A stretch of DNA of 64,000 bases from Escherichia phage vB_EcoP_PE007, in the sequence record OQ938542.1, one strand, 5' to 3'. The notes below the pieces were generated by a model. That model saw only the letters and a list, made by a program, of their open reading frames with translations, was not told the origin of the DNA and did not search any database. The translations under genes were made by a program, and so were the position numbers. This document shows, in pieces, positions 8,428-64,000 of this stretch (position 1 is the stretch's first letter; the number at the start of each line of letters is the position of its first letter).

Positions 8428-10995
8428 ATGTTAGTTGCAGATACCAACGAAATAGCTACCTCAGCGACACTGGGTAGCAAAGAAACAATTGCCTTTGGCA
8501 TCTCTGATGACCCGGCATTCTTTCATGTATTAAGTACTTCCCTGTATAACAATCCTACTCTGGCAGTAGTCCGTGAGACTATCTGTAACAGTTGGGATGC
8601 TCATATTGAAGCAGGTAAGACTGATACCCCTATTCGTATCACTATTGATACAGACAACTTTATTACCTTCCGAGACTACGGTAACGGCATTCCAGATGAA
8701 CTCATTGGTTCCATTTATGGTGTCTATGGTGCATCTACTAAGAAGGCCAACAGTAGCGTTACTGGTGGCTTTGGCCTGGGATGTAAATCTCCATTCGCTT
8801 ATACAGATAGCTTCCAGGTTACTTCATGGAACCAGGGAAAGATGTCGGTATATAACGTAGCTAAGGCTGCGATTGAGAATGATGGTAAGCCCGGTATTGT
8901 TCCTATTGTTACTGGTATTCCTACTGAGGAATCTGGCCTGGAAGTTAAATTCCAGTTAGGCAAACATGACGTAAATACCTTCGTGCATTACATCACATCA
9001 ATCGTATTTAACGGTGAGATTAAAGCTGAGCTTAGTATCCCTAAACTAGTTAAAACAGAAGCAGGCAATAGTATTCAACAGGGTGATTACACTTTATTGA
9101 ATACGCTGGGTATGTCATTTGAACCTGGTTCATATGATATGTCTGATAGATGGTATCAAGGCTATATGGGTAGCAGTAACATATACGTTCGCTACGGTAA
9201 TGTAATGTACCCAATTGTATCCAGCCCAGCTAGTGAAGAAGCTGTAGACCTTATCCTCAACTTCATGAATATTATTGGTGCTTCTAATCTAGTAGTTCAG
9301 GCTGCACCAGACACTTTAGCTATTGCTCCTAGTCGTGAAACGCTGTCTAACCAGAAGTTAACCGACGATGGTATTACTACTCTATGTGTAGATTTAGTAG
9401 ACCGTATGGAGAAAGAGATTAAGGCTAAGATTCCTGAAGCTATTAAGCAAGTTGAAGAATATGCCTCTAAATCCTCTACTCGCTTTTGGGAATATCCATC
9501 TTTCCTACTTGCTGTTACAGACAGAACCGTCCAACGTTATATGTCCTCTAGCTTATGGGCTAAGCAACGTAAGCATCACATCAAACACTGGCGTAATCTA
9601 TCCAATAAGGCTTTGTTAGCTCGCCCTGAGTATGCAGGTCTTAAGAAACTGTATGGCAAGGCTATGTGTGCTCTTAAGGATACTCGTGAAGAAAGTACAT
9701 ACTCTCCGTTCCAGGAATTAGTATATCGCCATCTACACTTACCACAGCTTGCTGCTTTGAAAACCTCTGGTATTAAGTGGTCTGGTTACATAATGAACCA
9801 AGGTAATCGTGTTGACCTGGTGAAGGGTAGACTTACTGACTACTTTAAGATGTATCATAACTCCCATCAGGGTATTGGCATATTTACTACCAAGAACGTT
9901 GTAGTTACTCGCCGTTTATCTGATTGTGCAGACTCTTTTTCATACTTCCCTGAGTACAATCGAGGTGATCTGGAGCGTACAGCTTTTGTTCACGTCGTTG
10001 GTCCTAAGAAGGGTGCAGCAGAAGAAGCTGTAACTAAGTTCACTGCTATGGGTTATCGGGTAATTGACCTTACTCAATATAATGAGTGGGACAAACCAAC
10101 TAACTTCCGCAGAGAACAAGCTAAGATAGCTGCCGAGAAACGGGCTAAGACAATAGCTGCCAATAAAACCAAAGCAACTAGTAAAACCAATGCTCTGATT
10201 TCATTGAATGCAGTTCTTGGTGCTACCCAGGTGCGGAATAAAAATGGAGATTGGGAACCCAAGCCGTATATTCAGAAAGAATTTGCTGACCCAAGTCGCC
10301 ATGAAAAGTACGGTTTCGTTGAAGTAGAACAGCCTAAGTACTACGTACTAGCCAATCAGGTTGGTTCAGGTAACCCAGTAACTGCCAGTATTGGAACCAT
10401 GTGGAAATGGTATGAGTTATCCGATGAGATGAAAGCAGAGACTGTTGTCTGTCGTAATCAAATTGAAGCTAACAAGGCCAAACGACGTGGTGCTATCCAC
10501 ATTGATGATGTTCGCTTTAGTGAACTGATGTCTGTTATTACCAGTAAAGGATTCAAGAAATATGTTACTGAACATCGTATAGGTATTCTGGAATACGTAG
10601 GACTGGATGACAGAGAGTATTGGGAAATCCTAGACATACTGGGTCTAACCTTCAAACCATTACAGAATCTGATTTTTAAACCAGAATATGAATGGGCATA
10701 TGACTTTCTACGGAATCGACCACACGACAACAAAGAAAAACTTGTTGAAATGGGTTGTATTAAGTCAGTGGATGACTTAGAGCCATATGCAATAATGACT
10801 AATCCGCGTAATCATAAGTACTTTAAAATACTTAATGATTACAAAGAATTATTCAGTTATAGCTGGAATAAAAATGACATCCTACAGACGCTGGACTTAG
10901 GTAGTTTGGTCAAACACCTTAAGAAGAATCCAGAGGATATTCCTGGGTTTAAGTCCCTCTACCGTAATCGTCTAAATAAACTGAAAGGTAACTAA
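8428..10995 (+). CDS. rIIA: rIIA-like protein (GHKL ATPase domain)
   Basis: N-terminal GHKL boxes: RETICNSWDAH, DYGNGIP, GGFGLGCKSPFAYTDS; paired with a downstream large partner as in rIIA/rIIB. Confidence 0.6.
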   Translation: MLVADTNEIATSATLGSKETIAFGISDDPAFFHVLSTSLYNNPTLAVVRETICNSWDAHIEAGKTDTPIRITIDTDNFITFRDYGNGIPDELIGSIYGVYGASTKKANSSVTGGFGLGCKSPFAYTDSFQVTSWNQGKMSVYNVAKAAIENDGKPGIVPIVTGIPTEESGLEVKFQLGKHDVNTFVHYITSIVFNGEIKAELSIPKLVKTEAGNSIQQGDYTLLNTLGMSFEPGSYDMSDRWYQGYMGSSNIYVRYGNVMYPIVSSPASEEAVDLILNFMNIIGASNLVVQAAPDTLAIAPSRETLSNQKLTDDGITTLCVDLVDRMEKEIKAKIPEAIKQVEEYASKSSTRFWEYPSFLLAVTDRTVQRYMSSSLWAKQRKHHIKHWRNLSNKALLARPEYAGLKKLYGKAMCALKDTREESTYSPFQELVYRHLHLPQLAALKTSGIKWSGYIMNQGNRVDLVKGRLTDYFKMYHNSHQGIGIFTTKNVVVTRRLSDCADSFSYFPEYNRGDLERTAFVHVVGPKKGAAEEAVTKFTAMGYRVIDLTQYNEWDKPTNFRREQAKIAAEKRAKTIAANKTKATSKTNALISLNAVLGATQVRNKNGDWEPKPYIQKEFADPSRHEKYGFVEVEQPKYYVLANQVGSGNPVTASIGTMWKWYELSDEMKAETVVCRNQIEANKAKRRGAIHIDDVRFSELMSVITSKGFKKYVTEHRIGILEYVGLDDREYWEILDILGLTFKPLQNLIFKPEYEWAYDFLRNRPHDNKEKLVEMGCIKSVDDLEPYAIMTNPRNHKYFKILNDYKELFSYSWNKNDILQTLDLGSLVKHLKKNPEDIPGFKSLYRNRLNKLKGN

Positions 10996-63089: not shown

Positions 63090-63428
63090 ATGAACGTTAA
63101 GCTATTGGGTATGAGTGGTACAGACTTGCTGTACTACTCCTCTGAACCAGAGAAAGCAATCATTCACACTATGACCTATGGAACCTCAACACTAATAATG
63201 GAACCGGGAGAGTTAGCAGACTTTGCACAAGGGCATAAACTCCTTACTAACAGTAATGCGGAGATAGTTATCCTGCAAAATGGTGAGTCAGTATTCATAC
63301 CATTGGGGGATTATGCTCATGTGTTTATCAAAGATGCTACCGTAAGGAATAGTAGTGGTAATCCTAACCATCCGGACTATTACTCAGGTATAGCTCGTAT
63401 CATCACCAGAGAACTTTCTCCTATTTAA
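63090..63428 (+). CDS. small hypothetical protein
   Basis: ATG ORF at the end of the array; family membership unclear. Confidence 0.4.
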   Translation: MNVKLLGMSGTDLLYYSSEPEKAIIHTMTYGTSTLIMEPGELADFAQGHKLLTNSNAEIVILQNGESVFIPLGDYAHVFIKDATVRNSSGNPNHPDYYSGIARIITRELSPI

Positions 63429-63608
63429 CTGCTTATAAGGATTAACATGTGGTATGTAACAGTCAAGGGCTTACCTGAACCAGTGATAATGCACAGCCTT
63501 GCTTTCGTAGAAGTAGGTGGACCATTACTTGTAAATGGTAAGCTCTATGAGGTTTTAAGTATCAAACGCTATGATGAATAGGGGATAGATAGTTATCCCC
63601 CATAGTAT

Positions 63609-63734
63609 TTACAGATAAGGTAGAACCAGTGACAAGAGTACAATACCTATGAATCCTACAGCACAGGCACAGGCAATAAAGTGTAACCAGTTCTCAGGGT
63701 CTGTAGGATTGTATTTACCCCAACCATCTTTCAT
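63609..63734 (-). CDS. possible 41-aa membrane protein (not in the ORF track)
   Basis: ATG with gaggt RBS; hydrophobic FIACACAVGFIGIVLLSLVL; stop abuts hairpin 63583-63602. Confidence 0.25.
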   Translation of the reverse strand: MKDGWGKYNPTDPENWLHFIACACAVGFIGIVLLSLVLPYL

Positions 63735-63833
63735 GTTAGTACCTCAAAGTTATCTGCTTATAGAGATAGTGCCTATAATATTTTTGCATGTCAAAATTGT
63801 GATAGCTATGTATGACTGTAGTGGTGTGGCTGG

Positions 63834-63889
63834 GGCTACACCCTTACACTCAACTAGCCCCCCCCCCCCGGTATGTTGACGGTGTAGCC
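63834..63889. repeat. C12 homopolymer flanked by a 9-bp inverted repeat
   Basis: ggctacacc at 63834-63842 and ggtgtagcc at 63881-63889 flank a run of 12 C at 63858-63869. Confidence 0.5.
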
Positions 63890-64000
63890 ACTACCCTACC
63901 CCACCTTACACGTTACACATGCTTGACTCACTTCGTTCGTCAGCGATGCTCCGCATGTTATGGACATGTCGTCCTATCATCAACTATTGGAGCTATCATC

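Follow-up and report, generated by a model that had tools for sequence, protein, structure and literature searches.

The stretch analysed here (the window) comprises 64,000 nucleotides (nt) of Escherichia phage vB_EcoP_PE007 (OQ938542.1), and near its end, at positions 63858..63869 on the + strand, lies a run of 12 cytosines (C12) that is homologous to the run of nine cytosines at nt 32-40 of phage N4. An initial annotation made from the sequence had singled out this tract together with a flanking 9-bp inverted repeat and a GT-rich flank (gtagtggtgtggctgggg), and all three were confirmed, the repeat being perfect over its 9 bp. In a scripted survey of the 64-kb window, the C12 run was the only homopolymer of 8 or more; no other C-run exceeded 6, and no run of another base exceeded T7. 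At the composition of the window, 64 kb should hold 0.027 runs of 12 or more if any base is counted and 0.0006 if only C is, and the tract is therefore not a product of chance. The observation is genuine and the element is one already known from N4, here carrying an extreme allele and accompanied by an unusual copy of the early promoter P1. Beyond what the initial annotation had described, the window places the run in a direct terminal repeat (DTR), holds a hairpin promoter at 63946-63962 with an insertion of 27 nt, and has an inverted repeat that is poorly conserved.

With nt 1-150 of N4 as the query, we found 80 matching records in Enquatrovirus, Gamaleyavirus and Kaypoctavirus, and we aligned 29 non-redundant elements spanning these three genera. 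The order of parts is kept from N4 through Gamaleyavirus to Kaypoctavirus: the terminus, a first block (GGGGCTACACCCTTACAC; block 1), 8 nt, the C-run, about 25 nt, a further block (CCCTACCCCACCTTACAC; block 3), P1 and gene 1. In the window, block 1 lies at 63832..63849 (+ strand), corresponds to N4 nt 5-23 and includes the left arm of the inverted repeat (63834-63842). Block 3 lies at 63894..63918 (+ strand), reads CCCTACCCCACCTTACAC-G-TTACAC and is invariant in the three genera; it resembles block 1 as an imperfect direct repeat (CTAC..CCTTACAC, with CCTTACAC as the direct repeat). Across the 29 elements, the invariant or nearly invariant columns were GGGCTACA(C)CCCTTACAC in block 1, the core of the C-run, CCTACCCCACCT-TACAC-N-TACAC in block 3, the hairpin core TGCT(C/T)CGCA and TATGGACATGT, while the 8 nt before the C-run and the approximately 25 nt after it were free to vary in sequence. 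The corresponding nt 1-110 of N4 read TGGTG-GGGGCTACACCCCTTACAC-CATAAGCA-C9-TGTCTTTACTAGTGTAGCCTTAG-CCTACCCCACCTTGTACACGTTACAC-GTTGC-TTC-GCAAC-TTATGG, with the ATG of gp1 at 154. In all Enquatrovirinae examined, the C-run begins about 32 nt from the left terminus and 60-90 nt upstream of P1. The last feature of the leader in the window is the GGAG ribosome-binding site of gene 1 at 63989..63992 (+ strand), where relatives continue ...GGAGCTATCATC-ATGACTACT and have gp1 annotated; the ATG of gene 1 would be at 64001, immediately past the window.

The run in the window thus resembles that in the N4 DTR (NC_008720) in its position relative to the terminus, in the P1 hairpin and gene 1 downstream, in its unstable length and in its flanking blocks (GGGGCTACACCC(C)TTACAC upstream and CCTACCCCACCTT..ACAC downstream). 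It differs in belonging to another genus, as N4 has C9-C10 and Gamaleyavirus usually C7, a difference that is offset by a downstream segment 2 nt longer in Gamaleyavirus. The allele in the window exceeds the mode of its genus by 5 C, and the lysis phenotype described below has been reported for N4 only.

To place the window within its genome, we compared it with related records. Its last kilobase matched 58 records, nearly all of them Escherichia/Shigella phages of the genus Gamaleyavirus, with best identities of 90-95%; over the region, 58-63 Gamaleyavirus records matched, and by this comparison the window is a Gamaleyavirus genome (G7C-like and N4-related; Schitoviridae, Enquatrovirinae). 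Base 1 of the window aligns with nt 8843 of St11Ph5, inside gp17, so the window should cover approximately genome positions 8.8-72.8 kb. The end of the window is an accident of its size and not the end of the genome, which by homology should run about 260 nt further. Homology with the mapped termini of relatives identifies 63826..64000 (+ strand) as the first 175 nt of the right-hand DTR, and position 63826 (range 63825-63829; GTGGCTGGGG), 32 nt upstream of the C-run, as the equivalent of the physical terminus. The initial annotation had proposed a genome terminus or packaging region; a terminus equivalent does lie at about 63826, but on the same homology it is the inner boundary of the right-hand DTR and not the end of the molecule. 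The sequence at 63826-64000 is accordingly predicted to be the same as that of the genome's left end, which exits the capsid first. The left DTR copy of PE007 falls outside the window, and both copies are present and agree in 24-32N, G7C and Jgk1.

Several lines of evidence from relatives converge on this terminus. In IME11, read starts pile up at GTGGCTGGGGCTACACC (240 reads), one base longer (180 reads) and one base shorter (102 reads), and the other DTR boundary is 401 bp away (PMC3896407); PhageTerm gave DTRs of 401 bp in four UE phages (PMC11927229). The annotated repeats of Mimir124 (a 403-bp DTR) and G7C (a 1160-bp terminal repeat) begin at the same point, the records of 24-32N and Jgk1 open with GTGGC(T/A)GGGGCTAC, and GGGCTAC is found 4-7 nt inside the record starts of at least six records (24-32N, Jgk1, St11Ph5, G7C, KP8 and N4). 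DTR lengths are 401-404 bp in IME11, the UE phages, Mimir124 and KP8, 390-440 in N4, and 1160 as annotated in G7C. The far end of the DTR lies inside gene 1, outside the window, at ...TTCTGCAA(A/G)GATT (ends of loci L001 and L002). Since the DTR ends within gene 1, a second P1 in the right copy would be followed by a gene for a truncated gp1. These ends are like the short DTRs of T7, or the N4-type variant of them, in that the genome is linear and non-permuted, the repeat is of about 400 bp, and one sequence-defined end maps to this region. They are unlike the T7 type in that the first early promoter lies within the repeat, as does gene 1 in its 5' part, and in that distance rather than sequence appears to set the far boundary.

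Run length was compared in 35 elements, non-redundant and drawn from GenBank phages, IMG/VR and metagenomes. C7 was the mode with 21 elements, followed by C9 (7), C10 (3) and C12 (2), with C6 and C8 found once each; the two C12 elements are the window and the N4-group phage SPSP. Among five N4-group genomes that are otherwise near-identical over 150 nt, the run was C8, C9, C10, C10 and C12, and Gamaleyavirus elements with near-identical flanks also differed essentially in the run (C7 vs C9 in L035 and L018; C7/C9/C10 in L047, L060 and L080). The gap between block 1 and block 3 had a modal length of 40 nt in all three genera, made up of 8+C9+23 in N4 and of 8+C7+25 in Gamaleyavirus and Kaypoctavirus, and was largest in the window (45 nt). 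All of the length variation between the two blocks resided in the C-run; the non-C parts were fixed in length even as their sequences differed at most positions. This pattern is as expected of a spacer whose length matters, which is suggestive and not conclusive.

The corresponding tract of N4 is already known to be hypermutable and phenotypically relevant. It is listed as nine cytosines at 32-40, noncoding in the DTR before gp1, in Table S1 of a preprint on N4 (PMC12642591), in which the laboratory wild type had one C more than the RefSeq sequence and two rapid-lysis (r) lines had two or four more. In the same study, selection for rapid lysis yielded four classes of mutants, one of which consisted of expansions and contractions of this run (9-14 C), and a representative of this DTR class was as fast in lysis as the classical r mutant (PMC12642591). 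Earlier, Fouts et al. had noted that no phages in their survey carried longer homopolymers than the N4-like ones, at up to 12 nt and with unclear significance (PMC3670811). Taken with our sequence comparisons, the C-run is a conserved, slippage-prone element that is hypervariable in length. The initial annotation had offered both a slippage-prone tract and an assembly artefact: the former agrees with relatives whose flanks are identical and whose runs differ in length only, as well as with the N4 laboratory lines (PMC12642591), and the latter is not supported for the tract itself, which is kept in three genera.

It could still be that the tract is real and that the count of 12 is an error of homopolymer length in sequencing or assembly, the true allele being the usual C7-C9. 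The prevalence of C7 (21/35) and the position of the window as the longest Gamaleyavirus allele would fit such an error, and homopolymer miscalls are documented in 454-sequenced N4-like genomes (PMC3670811). However, an error of +5 would be large for current platforms, and plaque-purified N4 lines sequenced by Illumina truly differ by 1-4 C, with mutants at 9-14 C (PMC12642591). C12 was also found in SPSP, and C9-C10 in independent metagenome contigs. We therefore consider a miscounted allele unlikely.

The closeness of the run to the terminus raises a different explanation, namely that it is part of a terminase recognition or cutting signal (pac- or cos-like) that fixes the precise left end. 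A precisely cut end lies 32 nt from the C-run, the alignment shows cross-genus conservation to either side of the cut, and in N4-like phages one end is unique and the other variable, which implies that the unique end is cut at a specific sequence (PMC3896407). Against this, viable phages tolerate run lengths from 6 to 14, and a packaging defect offers no obvious route to rapid lysis. The record of PhAPEC5 (KF192075.1, L026) also bears on the question: the junction and block 1 are retained in it as far as CTTACACTCAACCA, after which it diverges, with no C-run, block 3, P1 or gene 1. As PhAPEC5 retains block 1 beside the conserved upstream junction and nothing else of the element, these two are, if the record is correct, the better candidates for the cut-site signal, and the run would belong functionally with block 3, P1 and gene 1. 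A role of the run in terminase cutting is thus doubtful. In place of the missing parts, PhAPEC5 (L026 60-200) has a hairpin of the type used by the virion RNA polymerase (vRNAP), AGACGC-TCC-GCGTCT-AAAGG, and an unrelated first gene of 77 aa. The gp1 protein is described as a cofactor of N4 RNAPII, and its absence from PhAPEC5 is for this reason surprising, if the record is correct.

The inverted repeat consists of GGCTACACC at 63834-63842 and GGTGTAGCC at 63881..63889 (+ strand), the latter located by repeat search; it extends to 20 nt at 75% complementarity. A repeat of this kind occurred in 1.2% of random 110-nt stretches of the window, which is of modest significance alone. It might nevertheless be the functional core of the region, its arms pairing either in a cruciform or in a hairpin formed by the 3' single-stranded end, with the C-run in the loop, and the structure priming end replication or being recognised by the terminase. 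In favour of such a role, the repeat is perfect over 9 bp in the window and over 8 bp in N4 (GGCTACAC/GTGTAGCC), and a passage in PMC3896407, citing Ohmori et al. 1988, places inverted repeats at the 3' ends of N4 and states that DNA synthesis can initiate at the ends. By direct reading, a second copy of GGTGTGGC at 63823-63830 also creates a small imperfect palindrome across the cut site. Comparison among relatives argues otherwise. The left arm, being within block 1, is invariant, whereas no stretch of the element is less conserved than the right arm, which takes the forms GGTGTAGCC, CGTGTAGCC, CCTGTAGCC, GGGTGTAC, CGGTGTAC and CGGTGCAC across Gamaleyavirus; it drifts uncompensated, so that the repeat measures 9, 8, 7 or 6 bp in different genomes of this genus, and we found no covariation between the arms. 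Three Kaypoctavirus genomes lack the repeat altogether and keep the blocks and the C-run. A stable terminal hairpin was likewise not supported, as the energies predicted when the terminal 70-75 nt were folded as single-stranded DNA, for either strand and also for N4, were no better than those of shuffled sequence (z -0.4 to -1.3). On sequence comparison, the inverted repeat belongs to particular lineages and is of low importance, and it is very unlikely to be the core of the element.

Downstream of block 3, at 63946..63963 (+ strand), we identified a copy of the early promoter P1 for the vRNAP, ATGC-TCC-GCAT-GTTATGG, by motif match, homology and fold prediction. This hairpin was the sole match in the window to GCTCCGC-N3-6-WWKGG. 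Its predicted positions are -11 at 63951 (the centre of the loop), -10 at 63952, -8 at 63954 and +1 at 63962. For N4 vRNAP promoters, the published determinants are A/G at -11, G at -10 and -8, C at +1 and a G:C pair that closes the loop (PMC4496689); the template strand here, 5'-CCATAACATGC-GGA-GCAT-3' with the loop GGA, fits at -11G, -10G, -8G and +1C and at the closing pair. The core GC-TCC-GC upstream of gene 1 is invariant, and the stem has undergone compensatory changes, with ACATGC/GCATGT in most Gamaleyavirus and GTTGC/GCAAC in G7C, CU10EC, L032, the KP8 group and N4. The authors of the KP8 record annotated the homologous hairpin as the 'early promoter' P1, and the early regions of St11Ph5, PD205, G7C and KP8 each contain three or four such hairpins. 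In N4, entry of the first 500 bp into the cell is passive and gyrase supercoils this DNA, after which transcription by the vRNAP pulls in more (PMC4496689). P1 would therefore be the first promoter available.

The P1 copy of the window is interrupted by a 27-nt insertion, TTGACTCACTTCGTTCGTCAGCGATGC, at 63923..63949 (+ strand), which is bounded by a 4-nt ATGC repeat and splits the upstream arm of the hairpin. In a comparison of 36 elements, this insertion was found in the window and PD205 only, and its presence in two independent genomes indicates that it is not an assembly error. Owing to the insertion, only 4 contiguous base pairs (ATGC/GCAT) flank the loop, as against 5-6 bp in relatives and the 5-7 bp stems of N4 vRNAP promoters. 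An alternative outer stem of 6 bp, pairing 63917-22 with 63953-58 around a loop of 30 nt, was the predicted minimum-energy fold. The promoter of the window thus shares with N4 P1-P3, which are hairpins with a 3-nt loop, the GC-TCC-GC core (GC-GGA-GC on the template), the site upstream of gene 1, the template -11G, -10G and -8G, and a +1C 11 nt from the loop centre; it differs from them, together with the copy in PD205, in having either a 4-bp contiguous stem or a 6-bp stem closing a 30-nt loop. We regard it as a predicted promoter with intact determinants and a shortened stem. No second copy of the insertion was found in the window at up to 3 mismatches, and nothing in the fetched loci came within 6 mismatches of it save PD205. 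We also considered recombination between promoters as the origin of the insertion, but the other early hairpins of PD205, which have normal 6-bp stems, do not explain it.

Two further observations concern early promoters in relatives. In L019/L111 (IMGVR_UViG_3300006879_000003 / Ga0079226_10000045), block 1, C9 and block 3 are kept and P1 is replaced by GGCTTG-CAAG-CAAGCC-CATGG, about 90-150 nt after block 1 and followed by different downstream sequence; this hairpin may be a variant first promoter. The downstream early hairpins of the P2/P3 type (St11Ph5, L010 880-1180; PD205, L114; KP8, L031; G7C, L017) share an upstream TTAAAA(A)CC. P1 has no such sequence and is instead preceded by CCTTACAC-N-TTACAC, which puts it in an upstream context different from that of the other early promoters.

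Considering all of these findings, we propose, with a probability of roughly 0.72, that the C12 run is a local allele of a conserved slippage-prone run in the leader of N4-like DTRs, situated between the two alike blocks GGGGCTACACCCTTACAC and CCCTACCCCACCTTACAC and upstream of P1. Several points weigh against this proposal. The tie of the run to P1 or to the handling of the leading end is one that we infer, and the lysis phenotype is one of N4. From block 1 to the P1 loop there are 69-72 nt across genera, 96 in PD205 and 101 in the window, and such variability argues against rigid helical phasing with P1. PhAPEC5, if its record is correct, suggests that the C-run is not essential for a viable genome end. 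Part of the conservation in spacing could simply be due to indels being rare, and not to selection. Finally, most Gamaleyavirus genomes have C7, and the count of 12 in the window is the one in the record sequence.

How length variation in such a run might act is a more tentative matter. The C-run could be a cis-acting adjustable spacer, or an element of local structure, in the leader of the first ~500 bp that enter passively. A change in run length would then change how the terminal block and the unit formed by block 3 and P1 are placed relative to each other; the altered geometry would shift the efficiency with which the leading end is handled or P1 fires, and with it the tempo of infection. 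Taken on its own, we consider this mechanism possible, at somewhat less than even odds. Strict helical phasing of block 1 with P1 was set aside as an idea of low probability, the distance being 69-72 nt in different genera. In the window, the expansion of the run and the insertion in P1 together add 32 nt, or about three helical turns, while the insertion of PD205 alone adds 27 nt, or about 2.6 turns. A broader version, which seems improbable to us, is that the C-run is a contingency-type tract across Enquatrovirinae, in which slippage variants reset the geometry of the blocks and P1 and so tune polymerase firing, genome pull-in and the timing of lysis in the population, with the additional 5 C of the window perhaps being a second-site adjustment to the insertion in P1. 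Phase variation by homopolymer spacers is known from bacterial promoters, such as the poly-C tract of Bordetella fim and the poly-G/poly-C tracts of Neisseria porA/opc. These are alike in that a slippage-prone homopolymer lies between two fixed elements and its length could tune activity, and differ in that no sigma-70 promoter is involved here; we use them as a working analogy only. One may also speculate about a G-quadruplex on the template strand or an i-motif on the C-rich strand, as C and G tracts are present by eye, with long loops.

Outside the terminal repeat, we characterized the genes and conserved sequences that precede the DTR. The initial annotation had called the whole region from 63430 onwards low-coding. 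This describes 63735-64000, which is the only truly non-coding part, but not 63447-63581 or 63609-63734. The gene at 63447..63581 (+ strand) encodes a 44-aa homologue of N4 gp72 (71% identity, E 3e-21, BLASTP), is annotated as a coding sequence in VTCCBPA_322 and lies last among the genes of the unique right end. At 63609..63734 (- strand) lies an open reading frame (ORF) of 41 aa with a hydrophobic C-terminal half (MKDGWGKYNPTDPENWLHFIACACAVGFIGIVLLSLVLPYL), also annotated in VTCCBPA_322; it is absent from 24-32N, Mimir124 and G7C and deleted in loci L001, L002 and L004, and looks like an accessory small gene. The deletion that removes it in 24-32N has its ends at short TACCCCA-like sequences. 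Between these convergent small ORFs, at 63581..63600 (+ strand), a pattern scan and inverted-repeat search found a terminator-like hairpin, GGGGATAG-ATAG-TTATCCCC, which is a consensus match only. Adjoining the DTR at 63774..63825 (no strand assigned) is a stretch of the unique right end, TATAAT-ATTTTTGCATG ... GATAGCTATGTATG ... AGTGGTGT, that was conserved in the 29-sequence alignment of three genera and in the junction sequence of N4. This stretch (TATAAT-ATTTTTGCATG, GATAGCTATGTATG, AGTGGTGTG) is non-coding, yet conserved from N4 to Kaypoctavirus, and could be the outer half of a candidate terminase cutting site or a promoter reading into the DTR. Scans of 63300-64000 returned one weak promoter-like sigma-70 site on the minus strand, no more than expected by chance, no terminator beyond the hairpin at 63581-63600, and a single Rfam match, a chance snoRNA (E 0.96).

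For the annotation of these phages, many of which are candidates for therapy, the C-tract marks the true genome start and is useful for orienting genomes; it is also a site where assemblies deserve to be checked by hand. For their biology, the first requirement is that the leading few hundred bases become a template on which the injected polymerase is active, and a length-unstable tract in this leader, tied genetically to the timing of lysis in N4, is a plausible built-in dial for the tempo of infection. The presence of the run in three genera, the fixed spacing of its non-C parts, the modal gap of 40 nt and the natural alleles from C6 to C12 offer a testable frame for N4 genetics.

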